Source: Candidatus Kuenenia sp. (GTDB lineage: Bacteria > Planctomycetota > Planctomycetia > Pirellulales > UBA1268). From it: a stretch of DNA of 11,332 bases. Shown here piece by piece: positions 1 to 11,332 of this stretch. The number at the start of each line of letters is the position of its first letter. Within the stretch, counting starts at the first letter, position 1. The notes under the pieces were generated by a model that saw nothing but the letters and a program-made list of their open reading frames with translations, was not told the origin of the DNA and ran no database searches. The DNA is taken from contig JAYQOK010000126.1 of assembly GCA_038144795.1 (NCBI GenBank), positions 1-11,332 of the forward strand. Reading direction: 5' to 3'. A program made the translations under genes and the position numbers.

Positions 1-2095
1 ACTGTGCATTCGTTACCTCATACACCCCAAGATAAAAAGGCTTCGTCAGCGTCACCTCGTGGGCATCTTCGTCTTCCCCCATCATGAACGTGCCCGCCGG
101 TAAGAGCTTCAACTGCATCCCAAGCGAATTGCGTAGCAGAGGCCGTGCAAGAATGTGTTCCCGTTTCAAGGAAAGTCGTAAGGGCTCCGCAATTCTCCGT
201 GCCTGAGCCACCAGTGCCTCTATTCCCGCATGGTTAGGATTGAGCGCTAGGTACTCCTCGCCCACGTCGAGAATCGTCAGCGCCTCCTCAGCACTGATCA
301 CCCCATCTGCCTTTGCGTCCTTGACGATCAAGACAAGCCGACTCTCAATCTCACCAATCTTCCGCACGCGACGGACCACCTCCAGCCCGGCTTCATCCAA
401 ATCCTCATCCACCACGCCCTTCACCGCCGCCAAGGCCGCTCGCGTGTCTCCCGCCTGCAGGGCGGTTTGTGCCCTGGTCACTCGGCCATCCCGGCGCTCC
501 ACCAACTGGCTCTGGATCTTTGCGATGTCCTTGCGATCGCCACGCAGGTCGCGGGCACGCGTCACCAACGGCAAAAGACCGTCATACTCCTTGCGCCCGA
601 TTCGATTCGTGATCTCATCAATAACATGAACGGATTCTGAGTACTGTTTTGCGCAGGTATCAAGCAAACGCGACACGTCACCAGTGCGAAGCCGCTCCGG
701 AATCGTCTCAAGAGCATGAATCGCAGCAAGGTAGTCAAACGCCTCGTGATGGGCTTTCGCTTCGCGAACCTTCTCCGCCACCGCCCGCTCCTGCCGAACC
801 CGCTCCTCGGCTACCTGTGTGCCAAACGACTGTGCCCACTCGGCAAGATCACTCAGGTGGGGTAACGCCTTCGACGCAATTTCTGCCGCGATTCTCGCCG
901 CCTCATCAAATGATAAGTCGGCCAGCAGGGCTTCTGCGGTCGACCGCTTCGCTATGAGCGACTCCCGCAACTCACCCAATAGCTGCGGCTGATTCCCACC
1001 GCATTCACCACACACAAGATCCCAGACCGGGATCTGAGACTCGCACTTCAAGCACGCCGTCCGCATCGCGGCTCCGCACGCCGGATTCCGGCAGAACTTC
1101 CGGGAGAAGTCGGTGTTGACCGTGCCGCAAGAAGAGCACTGCCCCTCTTGAAGTTCCCCTTCAGTCGCGGCCGGTGGCGGCTTCGTACCCGATGGGGTGT
1201 GCTGGACGCCTTTCAGCGCATCCCGCAACTCTCTTGCTGTCTGATATCGATCATCTTTGCGGTCCTCCAGTGCTTTTGTGAGCACATCTTCGAGCTCTGA
1301 AGGAACGTCCCTAAACCGAATGATCTTCGGGCTTCTGCCCGTCACCATCTGGTAGATAGTGGCGGCGAGGCTCCAGAGATCACTGCGGGCATCAACTTCA
1401 CTCGCATCCCGCCGCTGCTCTGGCGGCATGAAGTCGGGCGTGCCCATCACCGCGCCCGTCATCGTCATCTGGTGATCGGTGGCCTCAGCCTTGGCGAGAC
1501 CAAAGTCGGTAAGCTTGGGCAAACCATCCTTGTTAAGCAGCACATTCGCCGGCTTGATGTCGCGATGAATGATCCCGAGGTCGTGAGCCTTGGCGAGGCC
1601 GTCGCAGAGCTGGCAGGCCAGAGCCACGGCGTCTTCTAACGACAAAGCTCCTTCGCGGCAGCGGTCGAGCAGACTCCCGCCGTCCACGTATTCCATGATC
1701 AGAAACGGCCCGTCCTTGGCGCGGCCGTAGTCGTAGATCTGCACGATGTTTGGATGGTTCAAGGCGGCAATGGCCTTGGCCTCGGTGAGAAACCGCATGA
1801 TCGCGGTCTTGCTCCGGGCCGCTTCGCCCAAGATCCGCTTGATTGCCACCTTGCGGTCGAGCCGGGTATCGGTCGCGAGCAGCACCGCCCCCATGCCGCC
1901 TTGACCGAGCGTGCCCTCGACCTTGTAGCGGGCCTCAAGATCGACGACCTCGATGTCGTCGATCACCGTGTCTTGATCACCCAACCGGTCGCCAAGCGTC
2001 CGCTCGTCGCCCAGGCTCATCTCAGCGGTAGAGCGCCGCTTGGCTGCTCCAGCGAACGTGGCTTCGTCGCTAAGGCTTTTTTCGATGTCGTCCAT
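1..2095 (-). CDS. Hanks-type Ser/Thr protein kinase with a double zinc ribbon and a C-terminal FGE-sulfatase (formylglycine-generating-enzyme / SUMF1-like, C-type-lectin fold) domain. Partial: the 3' end lies beyond the window start.
   Basis: Minus-strand translation from ATG (complement of cat 2093..2095) gives MDDIEKSLSDEATF..., then GQGGMGAV (glycine loop), VAIK, HRDIKPANVLL (catalytic loop, complement of about 1554..1586), TDFGLAK (DFG motif, complement of about 1500..1522), then CSSCGTVNTD...CRNPAC...CLKCESQ...CGECGG (complement of about 1000..1150). It reaches the window edge as ...LKLLPAGTFMMGEDEDAHEVTLTKPFYLGVYEVTNAQ, a typical FGE-sulfatase domain start, with no stop through position 2. 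The plus-strand ORFs at 240..629 and 649..957 are low-complexity antisense artefacts. Confidence 0.9.
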   Translation of the reverse strand, partial: MDDIEKSLSDEATFAGAAKRRSTAEMSLGDERTLGDRLGDQDTVIDDIEVVDLEARYKVEGTLGQGGMGAVLLATDTRLDRKVAIKRILGEAARSKTAIMRFLTEAKAIAALNHPNIVQIYDYGRAKDGPFLIMEYVDGGSLLDRCREGALSLEDAVALACQLCDGLAKAHDLGIIHRDIKPANVLLNKDGLPKLTDFGLAKAEATDHQMTMTGAVMGTPDFMPPEQRRDASEVDARSDLWSLAATIYQMVTGRSPKIIRFRDVPSELEDVLTKALEDRKDDRYQTARELRDALKGVQHTPSGTKPPPAATEGELQEGQCSSCGTVNTDFSRKFCRNPACGAAMRTACLKCESQIPVWDLVCGECGGNQPQLLGELRESLIAKRSTAEALLADLSFDEAARIAAEIASKALPHLSDLAEWAQSFGTQVAEERVRQERAVAEKVREAKAHHEAFDYLAAIHALETIPERLRTGDVSRLLDTCAKQYSESVHVIDEITNRIGRKEYDGLLPLVTRARDLRGDRKDIAKIQSQLVERRDGRVTRAQTALQAGDTRAALAAVKGVVDEDLDEAGLEVVRRVRKIGEIESRLVLIVKDAKADGVISAEEALTILDVGEEYLALNPNHAGIEALVAQARRIAEPLRLSLKREHILARPLLRNSLGMQLKLLPAGTFMMGEDEDAHEVTLTKPFYLGVYEVTNAQ

Positions 2096-2263: not shown

Positions 2264-4414
2264 ATGTCTGCACCGCTCAAAAATCACCGCTGGTCAACGC
2301 CCGATGAGATCTTCGCCCGCAGCCTTACGCTGGGCGATGCCGAACTCCCCCGCGGCTGGACGAAAAACAGCGTCGTCATCGAGCCCGGCACCAGAGCTTG
2401 TGCCGTAGTCGATGGCAACTTCATCGGCGATCTCCCCGCCGGCGAGTTCACGTTTCATGACTTCCGCGACAAACTGCAGTTTTGGCGGAAAGGCGAAGCC
2501 ACGCTGCTGCTCACCCGAACCGACGTGGTGCGACTGCCGGTCGATTGCAAGGGCATCGTCAGCGCCGACGAGGTGCCGATGGATATCCGCGTCGATGTCG
2601 GCGTGCAGATCGACAACCCCGTCGCGTTCGTCAAGAACATGATGGGCCCTCGAAAAGACTACTCGGTCAAGGAGCTCGCCGAGCGGCTCACCCCGACGGT
2701 GCGGCAGGAGGCCTGGGCGGCTACGGCCCGGATGCGGGTCGATGATCTGCGGGGCCCCGCGATGGTGACGAGAGTCTCCCAGCAGATCGGCTCGGCGATC
2801 TCCGACACGTTCAAGCGGTACGGGCTGAAGGTCTTCAGCATCGAGGGCGTGCTTATGCAGCCCACAGGGATGGAGCGGCACTGGGACAAGGTCAAGGAAA
2901 ACAATATCGAGGTCGCCGACGAACGGCTGACAAACAAGCGGCTCGGCCAGGACATCGGCATCCAGGAAGAGCGGCTGCCACTCGAGGGCAAACTTCGCGA
3001 CCTCCAGCACACTGGCGAGCGGGCCGCCATGGAGTCAGATACGACCCACGAGACCGCCAAGCTTGCCCACGAGGTAAGTACGCTGAGTGACCGGATTCCG
3101 CTCTTTGAAAAACTTCGCGACGCCGCGATCTCCAACGAGTTTGACAAGGCAAAGAGTGCCGAGGAGCTCAAGCAGCTCCTCGCCGCCGTAGACAAGCAGC
3201 GGCTGCTCCGCAAGGAGGAAATGGAGCAGTTGGCCGAAGGCTTCGATGAGAGAAAGGCCGATCGACAGTCGCTGCGGGATCATATCGTCACTGTGCTCGA
3301 CATCAATCGGGAGCAGGAAGTTGATGCCCTCCGGCTCGCCGTCGAACACTCGCTCGCGATTGCCGCTAAGAAAAATGAACTAGAACTCGCCGAGGCGACC
3401 AACTCGGTGGAAAACCTGGAGTGGCGCAACGAGATCGCCCGTGAGATCGAACTCGCCGAGAAGCGTCGCGAAGAGCGGAAGAAAGATCTCGCTGCGAAGT
3501 GGGAACGCATCCGCGAGACCCAGCGGCAGAAGCAGGATTCGTCATGGGAGAAGCTGCTTCATGAGCAGCGTGAGGAGTCGATCCGCACCGAACTGGCCTA
3601 CAAGGAGGCGGAGCGAAAGCGGCGACTGCAGCTGCTCGAGGTGGAAAATGCCGCCGAGGTCGAGCGGCAGAAAATCGTCGCCGAGCGTCTGCGGCGGGAG
3701 TTCGAACTGGAAATCGGTTCCCGCGAGTCCGACGCCCAGTTTGACCGGCTGAAGCGTGTTCAGGACATGAACTTCGAGGGTCACGCCCGCCAGGCCCAAC
3801 TCGACGCCGAGCTCAAGAGCCAGGCCGAACAGCGGGCCAACACGCACGAGCTCGAGCGGCTGAAGACGATGGGCACGTTGAGTGCGGAAGCCCTGATCGC
3901 CACCAGCGGCACAGACAATGCCAAGGCTCTGGCCGACCTCAAGATCCAGGAGGCCAAATCACAGGCGGAGATTCAGGCGGCCAGTCGTGGGGATCAGGAG
4001 GCTCTCAACCAAGAACGGCTTCGTATGTATGAAAAACTCCACGAGGCCGAGCGGGGCAAGGCCGACGCGATCGCGAGCGTCTTCAATCAGGCGCTCAAGG
4101 GCCAGCAGGATGCCGTCGCCCAGATGATCGGCGGGTTGGCTGCGGCCCACACCCCGCCGCGGCCGGTTTCGCCAGCGGCTCCGCCTCCGGTCGGCACCGC
4201 GGTGGCAGAGTGGCATATCGCCATTGGCGGCAATCAAAGTGGTCCCCATTCCGCCCGGCAAGTTCAGGTGATGGTGCAGCAGGGCCAGCTCGGCACCGAT
4301 GTCCTCGTCTGGAAGGCCGGCATGGCCGGGTGGGTCGCGATCGTGGAGTGCGCGGAGTTTTCGAGTGCCTTTGCGACGGTGCCACCGGTGCCGCCGCCAC
4401 CGCCACGGGCGTGA
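2264..4414 (+). CDS. Soluble flotillin-like protein: N-terminal SPFH/band-7 domain, long E/R/K-rich coiled coil, proline-rich linker and a C-terminal DUF4339/GYF-like domain.
   Basis: Start chosen as ATG 2264 with an AGGGAG RBS. The ORF-track start at 1754 would overlap the opposite-strand kinase. SPFH-like segment: NSVVIEPGTRACAVVDGNFIGDLPAGEF...LLLTRTDVVRLPVDCKGIVSADEVPMDIRVDVGVQIDNPVAFVKNM...YGLKVFSIEGV. About 350 aa of heptad-like E/A/R/K/Q-rich sequence follow (about 2900..3950), then PPRPVSPAAPPPVG. The C-terminus reads WHIAIGGNQSGPHSARQVQVMVQQGQLGTDVLVWKAGMAGWVAIVE (DUF4339-like: W..GP...L..G.I..T.VW..GM..W). No TM segment was seen. Stop TGA at 4412..4414. Confidence 0.8.
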   Translation: MSAPLKNHRWSTPDEIFARSLTLGDAELPRGWTKNSVVIEPGTRACAVVDGNFIGDLPAGEFTFHDFRDKLQFWRKGEATLLLTRTDVVRLPVDCKGIVSADEVPMDIRVDVGVQIDNPVAFVKNMMGPRKDYSVKELAERLTPTVRQEAWAATARMRVDDLRGPAMVTRVSQQIGSAISDTFKRYGLKVFSIEGVLMQPTGMERHWDKVKENNIEVADERLTNKRLGQDIGIQEERLPLEGKLRDLQHTGERAAMESDTTHETAKLAHEVSTLSDRIPLFEKLRDAAISNEFDKAKSAEELKQLLAAVDKQRLLRKEEMEQLAEGFDERKADRQSLRDHIVTVLDINREQEVDALRLAVEHSLAIAAKKNELELAEATNSVENLEWRNEIAREIELAEKRREERKKDLAAKWERIRETQRQKQDSSWEKLLHEQREESIRTELAYKEAERKRRLQLLEVENAAEVERQKIVAERLRREFELEIGSRESDAQFDRLKRVQDMNFEGHARQAQLDAELKSQAEQRANTHELERLKTMGTLSAEALIATSGTDNAKALADLKIQEAKSQAEIQAASRGDQEALNQERLRMYEKLHEAERGKADAIASVFNQALKGQQDAVAQMIGGLAAAHTPPRPVSPAAPPPVGTAVAEWHIAIGGNQSGPHSARQVQVMVQQGQLGTDVLVWKAGMAGWVAIVECAEFSSAFATVPPVPPPPPRA

Positions 4415-4444: not shown

Positions 4445-5461
4445 ATGGACGCGGTTGATCTGGTGGTTTTACGCCCACGTCTGCTCGTTGACTGGGGCGA
4501 ACTGCCCCAGCTTGGCCGCGTGGCTAGGCCGCTTTTTAGCCTGCTCGGCCCGAGTGCCGCAGGGCGGCCAAGCGTGCAGGTGACCGTCGATCGCGGGCTC
4601 GATCATGACGCCACCGACCCCCTTCGGCAGGTGCGAACCGAGGAATCGGGTTTGTGGACTTTTTACGTGCCGTTCAGCCTCACAAGCAACGGCCTGCCGG
4701 CGCTTCCCGGGCTCTATGTGATCGATGTCGCCGTCACGTTTCCCCATGCGCTGGCCGGGCAGCCGCGATTCCTGCAGACGCGGATTCGCCTCAACATTCC
4801 AGACGCCAGCAGCGGTCAGCGGGAGCTCGTCATCGACGGCGATGGCCAGTCGGTAGTCAATCTCGCCGGCCACGATCTGCGGTCATTCAGCCGCGTCGTG
4901 CTCAAGGGAGACGACAGCGCGATCATCAACCTGCAAAACTTTTCACAGCAACAGGAGGAGGCGAAAGCGACCGAAGCACCGGTCGTCTTCGAATACGAAC
5001 TCAAGGTCAATCACGACATCCACGAGCGATTGCCCGAGATTGTCGAGGTCTCCCAGCCGAGCAAGACAGATGCTCTCTCGCTCATCTGTGGTGACCGCCG
5101 CATCCATGTGATCGCCAAGAAGCGTGCCACGCTGGGCCGGCAGCGGCGGCCGGAAAACGACATCTGCCTGCGGTTTCTTCCCCGGTCCGCCGAGCATGAT
5201 GAAGGAAGCCGCGCCATCTCAAGGACCCACATCGCTCTTGATCTCACCGACGACGGGCTGGTGCTGGTCGACGAAGGCTCCGCGAAGGGGGTTGACGTCG
5301 ACTGCGACCCCGTGAAGGGCGAAAAGACATTCACGTATCTCGACGCCCACGGCAGCCGCCACATCGACTTGCCATCCCCACTCTCGTCATCGCTGTCGCT
5401 CGAAATGAGCTCACGGTTTTTGGCCGTGATCCCGACGATCCAGATTTTCGTTCTGATCTGA
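4445..5461 (+). CDS. Protein with a C-terminal forkhead-associated (FHA) domain. The N-terminal roughly 210 aa have unknown function.
   Basis: FHA signature in the C-terminal third: ATLGRQRRPENDICL...GSRAISRTHIALDLTDDGLVLVDEGSAKGVDVDCDPVKGEKTFTYLDAHGSRHIDL. This gives the GR, the SR.H and the D.gS..G..V-like motifs in the expected order. GGAAGG lies 5 nt upstream of ATG 4445. GC3 bias is strong through about 5400. The last roughly 20 codons are S/L-rich and low-bias, so the exact C-terminus is uncertain. Confidence 0.65.
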   Translation: MDAVDLVVLRPRLLVDWGELPQLGRVARPLFSLLGPSAAGRPSVQVTVDRGLDHDATDPLRQVRTEESGLWTFYVPFSLTSNGLPALPGLYVIDVAVTFPHALAGQPRFLQTRIRLNIPDASSGQRELVIDGDGQSVVNLAGHDLRSFSRVVLKGDDSAIINLQNFSQQQEEAKATEAPVVFEYELKVNHDIHERLPEIVEVSQPSKTDALSLICGDRRIHVIAKKRATLGRQRRPENDICLRFLPRSAEHDEGSRAISRTHIALDLTDDGLVLVDEGSAKGVDVDCDPVKGEKTFTYLDAHGSRHIDLPSPLSSSLSLEMSSRFLAVIPTIQIFVLI

Positions 5462-5568
5462 AGTGGGATGACGTCTGCTTCGAGACGGCAGGCGAACCAG
5501 CCTCGAGGCTCTGGCAGGTCGCAAAATCGTCCGGCATCGAGACAGTTCGCCTGCGCAGGCTCAATAAT

Positions 5569-8500
5569 GTGGCCGATGAGGAATATGTCGTCCGCTACCG
5601 TCACGCCACGCTTGGCCGATCCGCCAAGGACCATGCGATCGCAATACCGATCCCCGATCACTTGAAGGGGGACCTGCGGCTGATCTACGCCGGGCGGATG
5701 TTCTGGTTGCACTCGGGGGGCCGAGCCGAGGTGGCAGTCGATGGCGAGCCGATCTCGGGGCCGTGCCTTGTGCCGCTGAGGTTCGGCCAGTGTCTGTCCA
5801 TCGATTCGCTGGTGATCCACGTAGCCCGTATGGCCCAGTGCCAGCTTGACGAGAATCCCATCCTGAAGGCCCCACCAGTCAGGCGCCCCGTTGTCCCCGC
5901 GCCACTGACACCGTCAGCCGCGATTCCTCCGCCATTGCCGCCGGCGATCGCAATCAAGGCGGGGCATTCCGAGCCGCCGCCATTGCCTCCGGTGACGCCG
6001 CTGCGGTCGGGCGGCCCGCCGCCCAGCGATCTGGCTCCAGTGGCGGCATCCTCCGGTGGCGCCCAGGCCGCTGCTGCCGATTCGATGGCCGTCGCCCCGC
6101 CCTCGAGTTCCATCGATCCGGTTCGCGATGCGCTCGCCTCGGTCGCCCTCATCACCTGCCGCGTGGGGCACGGGTCGGCCTTCATCGCAAAGCCCGGCCT
6201 GCTCGTTACCAACTACCATGTCATCGCCGACGATGCTGTCGAGGATCTCGCGGCGCTGTTTATTGATCCGGTGACCCACGCCCGCCGCGAATTCTGCGTG
6301 TCGCTTCTCGGTGAAGATCCCGAGCATGACATGGCGTTCTTGGCGGTCGATGCAGACCTGCCGCCGCTGGGGATCAGTTCACACTTCCAGCATCAAAACG
6401 GCCACCGCATCGTCGTCATCGGCAGCCCCGGGGTGGGCGGCAACGGCGAGCGGCTCGAAAATGTCGTCACCGACGGTCGGCTCGGGCCTGTGTACTCTGA
6501 TTTTGCATCGCCTTCCCGCTGGTCGCTCAGCATCACTCTCAATCCCGGCAACTCCGGTGGGCCGGTGCTCGACGCGCAGACGGGCGAAGTGCTAGGGGTC
6601 ACCGTCGCCAAGTTTACGACCGTGGAGGGCTTGGCTCTGGCCGTCCCCCACGACGTACTGACCAAGGGCCTTGAGCAGGCGGCCACCGCATCGGGTGACG
6701 AGATCGGCCGGGCCGAGTCAGCGCACCGGCAGCGCTATTGCCTCCGGAAGATCTCGGCGTTTGTGGCGAGCGCGAATGTCGCCTTGCACGAGTTTGCCGA
6801 GCATTGCGATCAGATCGAATACGGCATGACGACCGTCTCGGGCAACTCGCTGATCGGCAACGTTGGCAGCGGGTTTGCCAACAATGTTGTCGCCGCCCTC
6901 AATAACCTTGCGGAGGAGGTCGCCGGGCAGATCAATCGCCTGCAGGACGATCGCTGGTGCCGCACGGTGATCCGGGACGATTTTGCGCAGGCCTGGGCGA
7001 GCCTCGACGATCTGCGATACGCCCTTGCCGATGTTGCGCCATCCCGATCGCGGGCCCTGGTGCTCGAAAGTTTGGGGGCCACGCTCGCCGCGGTCGAGGA
7101 ACTGTGTGAATCGATCCGGATCGAAATTGATGGCTCGCTGCTCAGTGGCAAGACCGTCTTTGACGCCGCCACGGAATCATCGGCCGGCCATTCGCTCGCG
7201 CTGCAGCAGATCGCCATGGGGGGACACGTCGCCCGGAAGAAGCCCAAGCGGCGGTATCTCACCAAGTCGCGATTTACGATGGCCTGCACCTGCCCGACAA
7301 AGCTCTTCTACACGGCCAAGCCGGGAGAATACGCGAGCGTCTGGACCACCGATCCCTTGATGGAATCCCTCGCCAACGAGGGCAACCGGGTCGGGGCCCT
7401 GGCACGGCTCTATTTTCCTGAAGGCGTGCTCGTGGACACACTCGAGCATGACGAGGCGGTGCGGCAGACCGGTGCACTCCTCGAACAGCCTCAGGCGACG
7501 ATCTTCGAGGCGGCGATCCGCCACGGTGATCTCTTCATTCGGGCCGACGTGCTCGGTAAGACACCGACCGGCATCGATCTCTACGAGGTGAAGTCGAAGG
7601 GCTACTCCGAAGACGACGACGGCGACTTCACGACGAAGTTTGGTGTCGCCGCCGATTGGCTCCGATATATCCGCGACATCGCCTTCCAGAAGCATGTCGT
7701 GTCGCAGGCTTTCCCCGGTGTTTCTGTCCGGGCCCACCTTTACCTGCCGGATAAGTTCCGGGCGGCCGTCTCCGATGATCTCGCCATGAAGGCGGCGGCC
7801 CTGTTGAACGGTGAAGAAGCCTCCCTGACCGCCGAGGAGCTGGCGAGCCCGCTCTTGCGGGCGATCAATGTCGATGCCGTGTGTGATCTCGTGCTCAACG
7901 ACTCGTACACGCTCGGTGACAAAACCCTGTCGTTCGTTGAGTACGTGGCCGCCCTTGCCGACCACTACTGCCAGGATCAGAAGTTTCCGCCGCAGCTTTC
8001 CCCGACCTGTTTCACGTGCGAATTCGACGCGTCGGCGTTTGCCCTGGCCACGGGCGAGAAATCCGGGAAACGGGAGTGCTGGGCAAGCCTTCTGGGCTGG
8101 ACGGATCGAGACTTCGCCACGCCGCAGGTCTTCGAGATTGGCAATCTCCCGGCCGCCAAGAAGCGTTCGCTCCTCGAAGAGCGACGGCTTCACATGCACC
8201 AGCTCGAGGAGGCCGATATCGCACCACAGGCCGATGGGGAGCCGGGGCTGTCGCAATCGCAGCGGCAATGGATGCAGGTCACCAAGGCCGTCGGCGGCGA
8301 CACATCTTCGCACCTGGACCGCAATAATCTGCGGGCGGTCATGGTCGGCTGGAAGTATCCGCTCCACTTCATCGATTTCGAGACCTGCCGGGCCGTGATT
8401 CCGTTCCACCGCGGCAGTCGCTCCCGGGAGTTGGTGGCGTTTCAGTTTTCGCACCATGTGATGCATGCCGACGGGGCAGTCGAACACGCCGGTGAGTTTT

Positions 8501-9186
8501 TGTGTGCCCAGCACGGCGTTGATCCCGGCGTCGCCTTTGTCGAGGCATTGCAGCGGGAGCTGGGCGGAGATAACGGAGCAGTTTTGCACTATGCCCCGCA
8601 CGAGGTTTCCACGCTGCGGGCCCTCGCGGCCCAGATTCGTTCCCATCGCTCGGAGATCCCCAATGCGGATGAGTTGCTTTCGTTCATCGCCACGCTCGCC
8701 CCGTTTGGCGACGAGGTTGCGAATCGGCAGGTCATCGATCTCTGCAATCTGGTGAAGCGGTTCTACTACTCGCCGAGCATGCGGGGATCTAACTCGATCA
8801 AGGACGTCTTGCCGGCGGTACTCGACGAGTCGGAATTCCTGAAGCAAAAATACTCGCAGCCGATCTACGGCGCTGTGGGCGGGATTCCCAGCCGCAACTT
8901 CTCCGGCATGCGGTGGGTGGAGGAATACGACGGCCACATCCGCGATCCGTACTCCCTGCTGCCCCCGATCGACGGCGTTCATAATCCTACAGAAAAAGGC
9001 AATGGGCAGGTTCCCCGACTGCTCCGGAATGGCGGAGCCGCGATGCAGGCCTACGCCGATCTGCAGTTGGCCAGTTGGACTCCGCAGCAGCGGCAGGCCG
9101 TGGAACAGGCTCTGCTGCGATACTGCGAACTCGACACGCTTGCGATGGTCTTCATCGTCGAGGCGTGGCGGGAGTGGTGTCGGTAG
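5569..9186 (+). CDS. Large multidomain protein. Domains in order: N-terminal FHA-like domain, proline-rich linker, trypsin-like serine protease (S1/Trypsin_2 type), helical region, PD-(D/E)XK nuclease fold (DUF2779-like), and a C-terminal RNase-H/DnaQ-like region with a DFET motif.
   Basis: GTG start at 5569 (MADEEYVV...). The reading frame is open back to 5296 with no ATG/GTG/TTG, so the true start is uncertain. Residues 1-88: an FHA-like fold pattern (TLGRS...HSGGRAEVAVDGEPISGPCLVPLRFGQCLSIDSLVIHV) lacking a clear SR.H. Residues 100-185: a P/A-rich linker. Protease: LLVTNYHVIADD (His codon 6217..6219), EHDMAFLAVD (Asp codon 6328..6330), TLNPGNSGGPVL (Ser codon 6553..6555). Nuclease fold: RRYLTKSRFTMACTCPTKLFY...FIRADVLGKTPTGIDLYEVKSKGYSEDDDGDF (D...D/E-x-K arrangement, about 7250..7760). 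Later come CFTCEFD and GWKYPLHFIDFETCRAV (DFET, Asp codon 8374..8376), then LHYAPHEVSTL. Strong GC3 bias throughout. Stop TAG at 9184..9186. Confidence 0.85.
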   Translation: MADEEYVVRYRHATLGRSAKDHAIAIPIPDHLKGDLRLIYAGRMFWLHSGGRAEVAVDGEPISGPCLVPLRFGQCLSIDSLVIHVARMAQCQLDENPILKAPPVRRPVVPAPLTPSAAIPPPLPPAIAIKAGHSEPPPLPPVTPLRSGGPPPSDLAPVAASSGGAQAAAADSMAVAPPSSSIDPVRDALASVALITCRVGHGSAFIAKPGLLVTNYHVIADDAVEDLAALFIDPVTHARREFCVSLLGEDPEHDMAFLAVDADLPPLGISSHFQHQNGHRIVVIGSPGVGGNGERLENVVTDGRLGPVYSDFASPSRWSLSITLNPGNSGGPVLDAQTGEVLGVTVAKFTTVEGLALAVPHDVLTKGLEQAATASGDEIGRAESAHRQRYCLRKISAFVASANVALHEFAEHCDQIEYGMTTVSGNSLIGNVGSGFANNVVAALNNLAEEVAGQINRLQDDRWCRTVIRDDFAQAWASLDDLRYALADVAPSRSRALVLESLGATLAAVEELCESIRIEIDGSLLSGKTVFDAATESSAGHSLALQQIAMGGHVARKKPKRRYLTKSRFTMACTCPTKLFYTAKPGEYASVWTTDPLMESLANEGNRVGALARLYFPEGVLVDTLEHDEAVRQTGALLEQPQATIFEAAIRHGDLFIRADVLGKTPTGIDLYEVKSKGYSEDDDGDFTTKFGVAADWLRYIRDIAFQKHVVSQAFPGVSVRAHLYLPDKFRAAVSDDLAMKAAALLNGEEASLTAEELASPLLRAINVDAVCDLVLNDSYTLGDKTLSFVEYVAALADHYCQDQKFPPQLSPTCFTCEFDASAFALATGEKSGKRECWASLLGWTDRDFATPQVFEIGNLPAAKKRSLLEERRLHMHQLEEADIAPQADGEPGLSQSQRQWMQVTKAVGGDTSSHLDRNNLRAVMVGWKYPLHFIDFETCRAVIPFHRGSRSRELVAFQFSHHVMHADGAVEHAGEFLCAQHGVDPGVAFVEALQRELGGDNGAVLHYAPHEVSTLRALAAQIRSHRSEIPNADELLSFIATLAPFGDEVANRQVIDLCNLVKRFYYSPSMRGSNSIKDVLPAVLDESEFLKQKYSQPIYGAVGGIPSRNFSGMRWVEEYDGHIRDPYSLLPPIDGVHNPTEKGNGQVPRLLRNGGAAMQAYADLQLASWTPQQRQAVEQALLRYCELDTLAMVFIVEAWREWCR

Positions 9187-9217
9187 TCGGCTGCCTGCCG
9201 CTCTCGTGACGGGTGGC

Positions 9218-9289
9218 AAAAAACCGCCCGGAGCGGTCGGCCGGCATGCTCGCCGTCTACTGGCACCGGGCGGTTTTAGAGATGTTTTT
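9218..9289. terminator. Bidirectional intrinsic terminator between the convergent plus operon and the minus-strand DGR transcript.
   Basis: A perfect 12-bp stem, aaaaccgcccgg (9220..9231) / ccgggcggtttt (9266..9277), encloses a 34-nt loop that has its own 4-bp inner pairing. It is followed by ttttagagatgtttttt on the plus strand and preceded by aaaaaa at 9218..9223, which reads TTTTTT after the stem on the minus strand. It sits 32 nt after the plus-strand stop and about 100 nt downstream of the minus-strand TR. Confidence 0.55.
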
Positions 9290-9375
9290 TCCACCAGGGC
9301 TTTCACTGGCCGCGGCAGACGGGACGGCGATCTGTTCCGTCTGGACTCCGGGGATACTTCCCGGCAAGGCGGAAT

Positions 9376-9503
9376 TCAGGGCAAGGCGGAAGCCCAGGTT
9401 GTTGTTGCGGTTCGACGGGTCGTTCCTGTTGCGGTTCGCCGACCGGCAGTTCCTGGCGGTGTTGTTCCAGCTGCCGCCCCGGTTGACCCGGTCGGAGGCT
9501 CAT
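9376..9503 (-). repeat. DGR template repeat (TR), minus strand. The 5' boundary is at about 9500 or beyond; homology may continue into the RT 3' end.
   Basis: Read on the minus strand, 9376..9500 translates to GGSWNNTARNCRSANRNRNDPSNRNNNLGFRLAL, with nine AAC codons. It aligns base for base with 11205..11332 (offset 1829). About 25 of about 30 differences are at TR adenines (plus-strand T), and five TR adenines are unchanged. The 23 nt at the 3' end, minus-strand cctgggcttccgccttgccctga, are identical in both copies. Confidence 0.85.
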
Positions 9504-10510
9504 GGATCGCCCACCGGCAGGGATTTAATCACAGCATCGCGGTAGCGCCAACTCCGTGTATCGGCGCCCCGGGCAAACGCGGTCACCGCCTCAAGTCGGG
9601 TCTGCAATCCCCGCTCATCGAGCAGGCCGAGCCGATAAGCCTTGCAGAGGGTGCGGACCCGGCGAAGGTATCGCCGTCGACTGCGTTTCGAGAGAAGCGT
9701 GTGGGTCGGCAGGATCCTACAGCCGAGAAAATCAACGCCTCGCAATGACTCGACGACGCCCGCGGGTTTGAACTCCAAGCCGAGGCTGTTCGCCAGAAAC
9801 TCCCGGCAGCAGGCCTCAGCGGCGACGAGTCTACTGCGATCATTACTCCAGAGCACCAGGTCATCCATATAGCGGACATAGCCCCGAATCCGAAGATGTT
9901 CTTTGACATACCGATCAAGGAATCCCAGATAAAAATTGGCAAAGTGCTGCGACATGAGGCTGCCGATTGGGAGACCGCGGCCGATGCCGCCGCGAAAGCC
10001 GGCTATGATCGCGGTAAAGAGTTTAAGGAGCCGGCGATCCTTGAAACGGGCTGCGAGCCTATCGCGCAGCTGGGCATGCGGTATCGAATCAAAGCACTTC
10101 CGCACATCGAGGTGCACCCTCCACGAGAATGTTCGCGCAAATCGTGCTGCCCTCACCACTGCCCGCTCCCGTCCCTTACCCGGTCGACAGGCAAAGGAAT
10201 CGGCTATGAGCCACCGCTCGAAGTGTGGTTCACAGACGTTGATAATTGCGTGATGGAGAACCCGCTCCGCGAACGCCGGGGCCGTGATAATCCTTCGCTT
10301 GGGGTCGTGAATCTCGAACTGGTGAAATTGACCCACCGGATACGTGCCGCCCCGCAGGCCAGCCGCCATCTCCCCCAGCCGATTGTCAAGGTCATCGGTG
10401 AAGGCGATCACCTCGCGGCGCTGCCGCTTCCCTCGTGCCGCGCGCCAGAACCCACGGCGGAGGTTTTCCATTTCGATAATCGCTTCAAACAGATTGCTCG
10501 CCCGCCGCAT
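9500..10510 (-). CDS. Diversity-generating-retroelement reverse transcriptase.
   Basis: The minus-strand ORF contains MRRASNLFEAIIEMENLRRGFWRAARGKRQRREV (N-terminus typical of DGR RTs), ...RGLPIGSLMSQHFANFYL (the DGR-diagnostic IGxxxSQ motif), and GYVRYMDDLVLWS (YMDD catalytic motif). Start chosen at ATG 10510 (complement of cat 10508..10510), giving 336 aa. The track's start at 10969 adds 153 low-complexity residues overlapping the upstream gene and is rejected. Stop TGA is the complement of 9500..9502. Confidence 0.9.
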   Translation of the reverse strand: MRRASNLFEAIIEMENLRRGFWRAARGKRQRREVIAFTDDLDNRLGEMAAGLRGGTYPVGQFHQFEIHDPKRRIITAPAFAERVLHHAIINVCEPHFERWLIADSFACRPGKGRERAVVRAARFARTFSWRVHLDVRKCFDSIPHAQLRDRLAARFKDRRLLKLFTAIIAGFRGGIGRGLPIGSLMSQHFANFYLGFLDRYVKEHLRIRGYVRYMDDLVLWSNDRSRLVAAEACCREFLANSLGLEFKPAGVVESLRGVDFLGCRILPTHTLLSKRSRRRYLRRVRTLCKAYRLGLLDERGLQTRLEAVTAFARGADTRSWRYRDAVIKSLPVGDP

Positions 10511-10988
10511 CGGTCGCCTCAGGAACCGCCACGTCAGGTAAGCTGGCCAGAATGCCGAGCAACTGGTCAGCGTATTTCTCGACTCGGGCATGCCCGACGC
10601 CATCGATTCGCCCGAGATCCGTGGCGGATCGGCACCGCTGCTGCACGGCCTGCGCCAGTTGCTCATTCGTAAACACGGCATACACCGGAACGGCCTCGCG
10701 CTGCGCGATTTCTTTTCGGAGCTCTCTGAGCCGCGAGAAAACCACAAACTCATCGGCCGACAGCACCTGCTTGTAGTCGATCCGACTGCGGCCAAGCGGC
10801 AGCCCGCGCCGACTGTCGCCAGCCCCGGACGGAAGATGATCGACACAGACCGCCCAGAAAGAATCGGAGCCCTGTTCGACAAAGCGCCGGTCGATTGCCA
10901 CGACTCGGAGGCTGCCGAGAAACGCGTTGATTTCAGACTCGATGGTCGCCGGATCAAGCACCGGAACAATAAAAAACTTTAGCGGCAT
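10485..10988 (-). CDS. DGR accessory protein with a C-terminal HRDC domain (HRDC-type accessory instead of Avd).
   Basis: Minus-strand ORF MPLKFFIVPVLDPATIESEINAFLGS...DEFVVFSRLRELRKEIAQREAVPVYAVFTNEQLAQAVQQRCRSATDLGRIDGVGHARVEKYADQLLGIL. The last about 70 residues fit the HRDC pattern (F..LR..R..LA....VP.Y.IF.D..L..MA...P.T..EL..I.GVG..K...YG). Start taken as ATG 10988 (complement of cat 10986..10988). The track's 11174 start adds an R/G-rich low-complexity stretch that overlaps the target-gene stop. The gene overlaps the RT start by 26 nt. Confidence 0.7.
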   Translation of the reverse strand: MPLKFFIVPVLDPATIESEINAFLGSLRVVAIDRRFVEQGSDSFWAVCVDHLPSGAGDSRRGLPLGRSRIDYKQVLSADEFVVFSRLRELRKEIAQREAVPVYAVFTNEQLAQAVQQRCRSATDLGRIDGVGHARVEKYADQLLGILASLPDVAVPEATDAAGEQSV

Positions 10989-11166
10989 GAGCACAGCACC
11001 GACAAAGGGCACGGCCAAACGGCTTTCGTGGTTACGATTTTTTCGATTGCGCGCTTCGCTGCGCTCAGCGCCGCGGCTGCCGCCGCATACGTCTTTCCCA
11101 TCTCCCGCTCCGCTTCGGCCCCTCCGGTCGCCGGCATCCGCCGGACTCCCTCCGAGCCTCGCTTTG

Positions 11167-11332
11167 CTACTCAACCGCCTCCGCCGGACTTGCTCCAGAC
11201 GGACTCAGGGCAAGGCGGAAGCCCAGGATGACGTCGCGGAACGACGGGACGCCCCAGTAGCGGTCCGCCGACCGGCAGAGCCCGGCGGCGGAGCGCCCGC
11301 TGCCGCCCCCGAAGACCCCGGCGGCGGCACCA
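11167..11332 (-). CDS. 3' end of the DGR target gene: C-terminal C-type-lectin / FGE-like fold carrying the variable repeat. Partial: most of the gene lies beyond the window end.
   Basis: Minus-strand frame: GAAAGVFGGGSGRSAAGLCRSADRYWGVPSFRDVILGFRLALSPSGASPAEAVE, stop TAG (complement of cta 11167..11169). The ...CRSA.RYW......R...LGFRLAL ending is the common CLec-fold DGR VR terminus. Each AAC codon of the TR is replaced by D, Y, G, F, V, I, L, S or R codons. Confidence 0.8.
   Translation of the reverse strand, partial: GAAAGVFGGGSGRSAAGLCRSADRYWGVPSFRDVILGFRLALSPSGASPAEAVE
11205..11332 (-). repeat. DGR variable repeat (VR), truncated by the window end.
   Basis: Position-by-position alignment to the TR at 9376..9503 shows adenine-specific differences, detailed in the TR entry. 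The invariant GC-rich 23-nt 3' block at 11205..11227 is a candidate IMH-like element. Confidence 0.8.

Follow-up and report, generated by a model that had tools for sequence, protein, structure and literature searches.

The 11,332-nt contig JAYQOK010000126.1 of Candidatus Kuenenia sp. (assembly GCA_038144795.1) carries a gene of about 1580 codons whose predicted product joins FHA phosphothreonine-reader domains, a Trypsin_2 serine protease and a complete two-part DUF2779 nuclease in one polypeptide. The gene is split by a single missing base. It lies in a conserved Planctomycetota cluster together with a gene for an SPFH-GYF protein and a Ser/Thr kinase gene, and is followed by a diversity-generating retroelement (DGR). 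The window that we analysed is this entire NCBI contig (G+C 62%). By its architecture and setting, the fusion resembles a novel effector of self-destruction or defence that a kinase would trigger. Our overall reading, in which a kinase would act through FHA recognition on a protease/nuclease conflict effector, has in our judgement an even chance of being correct. The coordinates of all features are collected in Table 1.

One gene of about 1580 codons, split by a frameshift

A sequence-only reading of the window had described the plus-strand open reading frame (ORF) 5569..9186, which starts with GTG and encodes 1205 amino acids (aa), as a fusion of an FHA-like domain, a protease and a dual nuclease. 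The motifs quoted for it are all in place (ORF numbering): NYH at 215-217, HDMAF at 253-257 and GNSGGP at 327-332 in the protease, and KSRFTMACTCPTKLFY at 566-581, D660, E673, K675, HFIDFETC at 933-940 and LHYAPHEVSTL at 1006-1016 in the nuclease half. The length of an ORF proves little at 62% G+C, but homology and a ratio of nonsynonymous to synonymous substitution rates (dN/dS) of 0.10, obtained from the DNA of this frame against a 90%-identical locus, indicate that the frame is genuine coding sequence and no shadow ORF. The nuclease-coding region also carries an antisense ORF of 709 aa (7177-9306, minus strand), which is most likely a shadow ORF of the high-GC strand.

That the 1205 aa make up a complete protein was not borne out. 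We found 32 close relatives, with 53–93% identity over 100% of the query, and they are single proteins of 1580–1650 aa that equal an upstream ORF (4445..5461) plus the 5569 ORF. Among them, P0002-P0029 and P0032 are complete and three others, including P0001, are truncated at an end. None of the complete relatives starts at the position of GTG 5569, and P0001, which is long enough to be informative, reads straight through it. Alignment by blastn revealed the cause: the window reads ATG-AGCTC at 5405-5410, while the loci L003, L004, L005 and L006 read ATGGAGCTC, which amounts to a 1-nt deletion. In a three-frame translation the upstream ORF reads ...SLSLEM and then leaves the frame, and the frame of the 5569 ORF gives ELTVFGRDPDDPDF... 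from as early as about position 5408. One added G results in a 1580-aa protein that is collinear with P0002 (1581 aa) and P0003 (1582 aa). The 160-nt bridge upstream of GTG 5569, which is covered by no ORF of the window, displays a dN/dS of 0.03 in the repaired frame. Because this bridge is under strong purifying selection, both the GTG start and the length of 1205 aa appear to be artefacts of the frameshift, and the 5569 ORF is best described as the 3' three-quarters of one gene of about 1580 residues (4445-9186). Compared with locus L049, the gene shows exactly one gap in 4386 nt; this, together with the low dN/dS of the bridge, indicates that the lesion is either recent or an assembly error. 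The upstream piece has a database entry of its own, a 338-aa protein (P0171). We rejected programmed frameshifting as an explanation, as there is no slippery sequence at this position and every relative keeps the frame.

It is very unlikely that the window encodes a stand-alone 1205-aa protein which starts at GTG 5569, has one N-terminal FHA-like domain and functions as an abortive-infection effector encoded by a single gene. An open frame with intact motifs speaks for it. However, no complete relative begins there, the coding frame extends 160 nt further upstream under purifying selection, and the gene is paired with an SPFH-GYF gene and with kinases at most of the loci described below. More weight is due to the possibility that the copy on this contig is a dead gene, with a real frameshift and the full protein no longer made. 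At most fragments would then remain, namely 338 aa without a complete FHA1 and perhaps an N-terminally truncated protease-nuclease. The deletion is present in the deposited contig and the 338-aa fragment is recorded separately; in addition, the missing slippery sequence and the lack of any relative that needs a frameshift make programmed frameshifting unlikely. On the other hand, there is one lesion in 4.7 kb, and the rest of the gene is undegraded, with the dN/dS of 0.10 and, immediately after the lesion, of 0.03. Single-base indels are common in short metagenome-assembled contigs such as this one, and the absent base is one G of a GG dinucleotide. We regard a dead gene as a serious possibility, though a doubtful one.

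An intact protease and a complete DUF2779 nuclease

The intact protein consists, in this order, of an N-terminal beta-sandwich, FHA1, an FHA2-like domain, a proline-rich linker, the Trypsin_2 protease, a helical domain, a Cas4-like nuclease and a DEDDy exonuclease. No signal peptide or membrane segment could be seen in its sequence, and the protein is predicted to be cytoplasmic. Residues are given in ORF numbering unless they are called repaired; ORF residue n corresponds to repaired residue n+375.

Pfam Trypsin_2 (PF13365) matched residues 202-344 with 75.4 bits against a cut-off of 27.6 (1e-20). The catalytic triad had been read as intact, and the family agrees: H217, D254 and S329 do not vary among the 33 long and the 6 short relatives. 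The protease region has a dN/dS of 0.04. A PDB sequence search with the whole ORF returned only proteases, and those matching the protease domain were DegP, MucD and HtrA. With HtrA/DegP (S1C) and with the protease domain of the PADLOC model RT-Protease_XI it shares the Trypsin_2 fold, the H-D-S triad and the GNSGGP oxyanion loop. It differs from the former by the absence of PDZ domains and of an export signal, a family-specific helical domain taking the PDZ position, and from the latter in that no reverse transcriptase (RT) is fused to the protease. We give almost no credence to the idea that this part is an ordinary periplasmic HtrA/DegP quality-control protease next to a nuclease gene. DegP, MucD and HtrA are indeed its top sequence matches, but all NCBIfam models score only about 50 bits against cut-offs of 250–470 (350–470 for the HtrA and DegP models). 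No PDZ match places it in the HtrA/DegP family proper, no signal peptide or membrane segment accompanies it, and it sits between the cytoplasmic FHA domains and the nuclease domains of one and the same polypeptide.

The helical domain that follows the protease had no match in Pfam, PDB or PHROG. It is partly common to short forms of the protein of about 950 aa and to zinc-ribbon-protease proteins of 440–560 aa. The latter are the nearest free-standing relatives of the protease, and they start with the zinc ribbon.

The nuclease module comprises the last ~648 residues and begins at about residue 558. Its assignment to a PD-(D/E)XK part and a DnaQ-like part had been made by pattern recognition, and an alignment with 118 free-standing DUF2779 proteins proved it right. 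A profile search of the C-terminal half, the check proposed for it, placed Pfam DUF2779 (PF11074) at residues 933-1076 with 75 bits against a cut-off of 23.3. When the module was searched alone, more than 2300 proteins matched. The best matches were free-standing DUF2779 proteins of 640–690 aa from Firmicutes, Deltaproteobacteria, Spirochaetes and others, with 42–46% identity over 99–100% of the query. Among the 120 best relatives listed, the complete proteins outside the fusion family measure about 620–720 aa and carry only PF11074.

The proposed acidic residues are invariant in the family and also invariant or nearly so across the 118 free-standing proteins. D660, E673 and K675 occur in 33/33 relatives and 118/118 DUF2779 proteins. 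D936, E938, E1012, Y1185 and D1189 are likewise invariant; Y1185 and D1189 form the Yx3D Exo III motif, and Exo II has a glutamate (E1012) instead of the usual aspartate. The first domain adopts a restriction-endonuclease-like fold and the second an RNase H-like exonuclease fold. Both predicted nuclease sites are competent-looking. Four cysteines (C575, C814, C817 and C837), conserved in the DUF2779 family with a spacing that differs from Cas4, could bind an Fe-S cluster.

The pairing within the dual nuclease is no novelty, since this is the standard DUF2779 architecture (PMC3985635, PMC13621843). Majorek et al. (2014) assigned PF11074 to a clade of DnaQ-like exonucleases and remarked that it is fused to a PD-(D/E)XK domain (PMC3985635). 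A 2026 mSphere paper likewise read MMSYN1_0389, a DUF2779 protein that is quasi-essential in the minimal cell, as a Cas4-like nuclease plus a 3'-5' exonuclease (PMC13621843). Our C-terminal ~648 residues are collinear end to end with the free-standing proteins (PF11074, ~660 aa; MMSYN1_0389 of JCVI-syn3.0; family F.17 of the RNase H-like superfamily), and share with them the invariant D...ExK, DxE, E and Yx3D residues as well as the four cysteines. In the present protein the module is part of a fusion, preceded by the FHA domains, the protease and the helical domain. No sequence similarity is detectable to PD-(D/E)XK nucleases of the Cas4/AddB/RecE type or to the DEDDy exonucleases of family-B DNA polymerases, and a PDB search with a 118-sequence profile of the nuclease module gave no match. 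The last cysteine is spaced differently from that of Cas4, and a Cas1/Cas2, helicase or polymerase partner is absent.

The contexts of two free-standing DUF2779 genes revealed no consistent partner, as one lies beside recombinases and an SNF2-like helicase and the other among metabolic genes. The former, in Desulfosporosinus sp. FKB (L008, 8001-16050), has two serine recombinases and a small-terminase-like gene as neighbours, and three unknown genes and then the SNF2-like helicase come after it. Here the stand-alone DUF2779 nuclease may belong to a mobile or defence setting.

A reader arm with one canonical FHA domain

FHA1 matches the FHA profile, has the GR and SxxH residues for phosphothreonine binding and shows the FHA fold, and its closest structural matches are GarA and FhaA. 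It is a competent-looking phosphothreonine reader, and it is located upstream of the start of the 5569 ORF. The 'FHA-like' domain of the sequence-only reading is the following one, FHA2. For this domain, an AlphaFold model predicts a beta-sandwich of 10 strands over repaired residues 365-461, with a predicted local distance difference test score (pLDDT) above 90. Its FHA signal is weak. The window copy has no Pfam match. Weak Pfam FHA matches were obtained for 5 of 23 relatives (best E 0.0011) and YscD-like matches for 2 of the 23, and a PDB profile search aligned the whole domain to the FHA domain of DgcB at a weak E of 0.43. GR is present in the window copy and SxxH is absent; the arginine of GR is not conserved in the family. 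FHA2 is thus a putative degenerate FHA domain that probably does not bind phosphothreonine.

The N-terminal beta-sandwich has no Pfam match and could be assigned to no known family, and it contains many invariant residues among 101 relatives. A disordered stretch follows it (repaired residues ~136-180, with a pLDDT below 50 for 138-168 in the AlphaFold model). Comparisons by hhalign of FHA2 with FHA1, and of the N-terminal domain with either FHA domain, were not significant, so a duplication cannot be claimed from sequence. The conserved motif PPPLPP...PPVxxLRAxG of the proline-rich linker is found in the forms of ~1600 and ~950 aa, and free-standing forms of ~527 aa end before it.

A conserved Planctomycetota cluster with graded effectors

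A scan of species-representative genomes yielded 37 loci, all from Planctomycetota except for a few contigs that are likely mis-binned. When the proteins of the window were mapped onto all loci, the SPFH-GYF gene was located directly upstream of the FHA gene in 28 of the 31 loci with enough sequence, and 23 of 26 loci had a Ser/Thr kinase. There are often several paralogous kinases per locus, and their C-terminal domains vary (FGE-sulfatase, WD40, TPR, Sel1, PDZ). The N-module also occurs by itself (N-terminal domain, FHA1 and FHA2, ~527 aa), and as a free-standing protein it is common in Planctomycetota. Neorhodopirellula lusitana is one example, and there the cluster has housekeeping neighbours such as valyl-tRNA synthetase.

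One gene slot is thus filled by three forms: ~527 aa without an effector, ~950 aa with the protease and the helical domain (L007), and ~1600 aa with the nuclease as well. The last form is confined to one clade. The sequence-only reading knew of no characterised protein with this combination of domains, and the fusion is indeed rare: the whole family forms a single cluster among 1.84 billion representatives at 50% identity. Integrase, resolvase or toxin-antitoxin genes lie near several of the fused-form loci. A check had been proposed on whether homologues are patchily distributed and sit in defence islands. Such a distribution is not obvious, since the FHA module, SPFH-GYF and kinase form a widely conserved Planctomycetota cluster. 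The fusion protein appears to be the effector-bearing version of this cluster, which would consist of an SPFH/coiled-coil/GYF scaffold, a double-FHA protein and one or more Ser/Thr kinases with C-terminal ligand-binding domains.

The adjacent diversity-generating retroelement

The right flank of the window holds a complete, active-looking DGR cassette that is convergent to the fusion gene. It comprises the end of a target gene with the variable repeat (VR), an HRDC-domain gene, the RT and the template repeat (TR). TR and VR differ at 27 positions, 23 of which are TR adenines, the RT has an IGxxxSQ motif, and the target has a C-type-lectin (CLec) fold, as found in DGRs; the peptide encoded by the TR matches the C-terminus of FGE-sulfatase. 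Between L049, the closest relative, and the window, the TR is identical at 122 of 124 positions, the VR has diverged and the flanks are about 88% identical. In the VR of L049, 20 of 39 ungapped differences fall on TR-adenine positions, and most of the others come after a 9-nt indel. A conserved TR with a diverged VR is the hallmark of ongoing diversification. Since the target gene runs off the contig, its product can be named only by synteny with L005, according to which it is probably a Ser/Thr kinase with FGE-sulfatase domains.

The orthologues in L049 measure 336 aa for the RT and 167 aa for the HRDC protein, and the HRDC ORF of the window, as listed, probably extends too far in the 5' direction. 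We looked for a group II intron at the RT and rejected this possibility: an Rfam scan of the window gave no family at threshold, and the RT is that of a DGR and not an intron maturase.

The DGR RT and the HRDC gene recur in a distant locus, L046, of the Pirellulales metagenome-assembled genome STL-PLA34. There the two genes (80-1532) are 52–54% identical to those of the window, and about 8 kb separates them from a distantly related version of the cluster that lies downstream. The N-module of this cluster is 38% identical and has no effector, and among the three downstream kinases there are two FGE/CLec matches at the C-terminus.

A putative pathway from kinase to effector

From these observations we infer a coupling of kinase and FHA protein, an activation step and, with less certainty than the coupling, a defence or abortive-infection purpose. 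A sensor kinase would bind a ligand by its variable C-terminal domain; at the window locus, the DGR would rewrite the FGE/C-type-lectin domain of such a kinase, if synteny identifies the target correctly. The kinase would then phosphorylate itself, the scaffold or the FHA protein on threonine. Docking of FHA1 on the phosphothreonine could recruit or oligomerise the protein, which would activate the protease and unleash the nuclease, possibly by cleavage of the variable linker of ~40 residues that precedes the nuclease. The nuclease would degrade DNA from both ends, so that in all likelihood either the invading DNA would be destroyed or the infected cell would kill itself. Since proline-rich peptides are the ligands of GYF domains, the GYF_2 domain of the scaffold may hold the conserved PPPLPP motif of the linker. 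In its full form the proposal amounts to an undescribed bacterial innate-immune pathway: receptor-like Ser/Thr kinases rewritten by a DGR, phosphothreonine-FHA docking on an SPFH-GYF scaffold, and a protease-nuclease executioner. We put this forward tentatively and think it rather improbable that it holds in every part.

Several points weigh against an effector role of this kind. The defence role suggested by the sequence-only reading is plausible, yet PADLOC-DB 2.0 matched the protease domain only (RT-Protease_XI, 4e-14) and neither the nuclease half, the N-module nor SPFH-GYF; nuclease, N-module and SPFH-GYF had no PHROG match either. The phosphopeptide-binding residues are absent from FHA2, and we found no phosphatase or phospho-acceptor site. 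The DGR target is cut off by the end of the contig, so that its identity as a kinase depends on synteny, and the window copy, frameshifted inside FHA1, may be inactive. Finally, the core cluster is broadly conserved and in one case has housekeeping neighbours, which fits lineage-specific signalling as well as immunity.

Such a non-immune signalling module, specific to the lineage, is a serious rival explanation, although we consider it the less likely one. The cluster would serve a regulatory circuit, for example in envelope or membrane stress, development or DNA-damage signalling, and the fused protease-nuclease would process endogenous substrates in DNA repair or turnover under phospho-control. 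The core cluster is found in 37 species-level Planctomycetota genomes, one of them with ordinary chromosomal neighbours, and SPFH proteins are membrane-organising scaffolds. FHA-kinase pairs of other bacteria regulate metabolism and cell-wall synthesis, and GarA and FhaA are the closest structural matches here. The quasi-essential MMSYN1_0389 (PMC13621843) argues for a housekeeping DNA role of some DUF2779 members, and no known defence model matched beyond the protease. However, a DGR points to the recognition of a changing ligand, and the flanking kinases comprise several paralogues among which the sensor domains have been exchanged. The cluster can do without the protease and nuclease, which are confined to one narrow clade, and mobile-element genes adjoin the fused loci. 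A processive-looking dual nuclease fused to a protease would also be an unusual design for a repair factor.

Relation to known systems

All single domains, the nuclease pairing of DUF2779 and DGR-diversified CLec/FGE sensors with trypsin-like effectors are already known. The latter have been proposed as a class of conflict systems (PMC7159879, PMC10907252). In these predicted DGR-FGS systems (Kaur et al. 2020 eLife, PMC7159879; Dore et al. 2024 PNAS, PMC10907252) the logic is the same: a CLec/FGE sensor domain at the C-terminus is rewritten by the DGR, the gene of a trypsin-like protease lies next to it, and the hosts are complex bacteria that include Planctomycetes, for which GYF-trypsin fusions are mentioned. 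They are built on STAND, MoxR-vWA or GTPase switches and on effector-associated adaptor domains, whereas here we find a Ser/Thr kinase as putative switch with an FHA domain as its reader, an SPFH-GYF scaffold and an added DUF2779 nuclease. In the literature we found no description of the kinase/FHA switch, of the SPFH-GYF partner or of a full DUF2779 nuclease fused to an FHA-protease.

As in the kinase-FHA pairs PknB-GarA/FhaA of mycobacteria and ALPK1-TIFA of humans, a canonical FHA domain (GR, SxxH) is encoded beside Ser/Thr kinases; here we found no phospho-acceptor site. TIFA undergoes a phosphorylation-driven oligomerisation through its FHA domain, which by comparison would be a plausible mode of activation for the fusion protein. 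To our knowledge, none of the FHA proteins of these pairs carries a protease or nuclease.

If the proposed pathway is correct, it would be a prokaryotic counterpart of pathways that lead from a kinase by way of an FHA domain to an effector, such as ALPK1-TIFA or Rad53/Chk2. The relay from Ser/Thr kinase to FHA domain would then be a further switch, besides nucleotide second messengers and STAND/MoxR ATPases, by which bacteria license a lethal effector. It would also give a DUF2779 nuclease its first assigned biological role, and with it a functional context for a widespread family (Cas4-like plus DEDDy) of thousands of members. A conserved Planctomycetota cluster of SPFH-GYF, double-FHA and kinase genes would have been identified, whose graded architectures (no effector, protease, protease plus nuclease) could serve as a natural series for the acquisition of effectors by a signalling module. 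Finally, a DGR would be linked to the diversification of receptor kinases, an adaptive-like tuning of the signalling input.

Neighbouring genes and minor features

The SPFH-GYF gene ends 30 nt before the fusion gene. Homology sets its start at ATG 2264, which is preceded by GGGAG; a listed ORF of 886 aa that begins at 1754 is over-extended, as its first ~170 codons are antisense to the 5' end of the kinase gene. In the coiled-coil region we noticed three imperfect 37-nt direct repeats (3089-3125, 2969-3005 and 4013-4049, 68–73% identity) that probably reflect a repetitive heptad-like coding sequence.

The left-hand kinase gene is divergent from SPFH-GYF, with an intergenic region of 168 nt (2096-2263). 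Its VAIK, HRD and DFG motifs are readable, and the predicted enzyme is active-looking. Besides a double zinc ribbon and a coiled region, the sequence shows the beginning of an FGE-sulfatase domain (C-type-lectin fold); the C-terminus lies beyond the left end of the window. A 61-aa zinc-ribbon gene stands between the kinase and SPFH-GYF genes in L007 (4123-4308) and in loci of GCA_041445565.1 and GCA_041447055.1; the window has no room for it.

Table 1. Features of the 11,332-nt window and their coordinates
Feature	Position	Strand	Remarks
Ser/Thr protein kinase	<1..2095	-	Pfam Pkinase 5.3e-38, DZR 3.5e-5, start of FGE-sulfatase
SPFH/Band-7, coiled coil and C-terminal GYF_2 gene	2264..4414	+	716 aa; Pfam GYF_2 5.9e-15, Band_7_1 6.8e-4
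Full fusion gene	4445..9186	+	~1580 codons after one added base; split here into 4445..5461 and 5569..9186
N-terminal beta-sandwich	4472..4849	+	repaired aa ~10-135; AlphaFold model mf34ff1b4e933, pLDDT >90 for aa 10-130
FHA1 (canonical)	5057..5433	+	repaired aa ~205-330; G231-R232, S259-R260-x-H262; interrupted by the frameshift
Frameshift site	5405..5410	+	ATG-AGC here, ATGGAGC in relatives; one G absent after 5407
FHA2-like beta-sandwich	5536..5838	+	ORF aa ~1-90, repaired aa ~365-465; 'FHA-like domain' of the sequence-only reading
Proline-rich linker	5839..6138	+	conserved short motif PPPLPP...PPVxxLRAxG (family alignment)
Trypsin_2 (S1C-type) serine protease	6139..6678	+	triad H217, D254, S329; without PDZ domain
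Helical domain	6679..7239	+	accompanies the protease; no known family
Cas4-like PD-(D/E)XK nuclease domain	7240..8268	+	D660, E673-x-K675, Q707; four Cys C575, C814, C817, C837
DnaQ-like DEDDy 3'-5' exonuclease domain (Pfam DUF2779)	8269..9183	+	D936, E938, E1012, Y1185, D1189
DGR template repeat	9376..9499	-	124-nt repeat
DGR reverse transcriptase	9500..10969	-	Pfam RVT_1 2.2e-17; homologous core ~9503-10519; IGSLMSQ motif
HRDC-domain accessory gene	10485..11174	-	Pfam HRDC 1.1e-16; in place of Avd
DGR target gene, 3' end	11167..11332	-	VR 11205-11328; C-terminus of FGE-sulfatase/CLec domain; rest beyond the right end of the window

Between the nuclease gene and the DGR we observed a GC-rich hairpin, AAAAAACCGCCCGG...CCGGGCGGTTTT (9220-9278), flanked by an A-run and a T-run. 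A strict scan for consensus terminators made no call at this position. The 104-nt stretch 9187-9290 that contains the hairpin folds with -50.5 kcal/mol (z -3.1), and the element looks like a bidirectional terminator.

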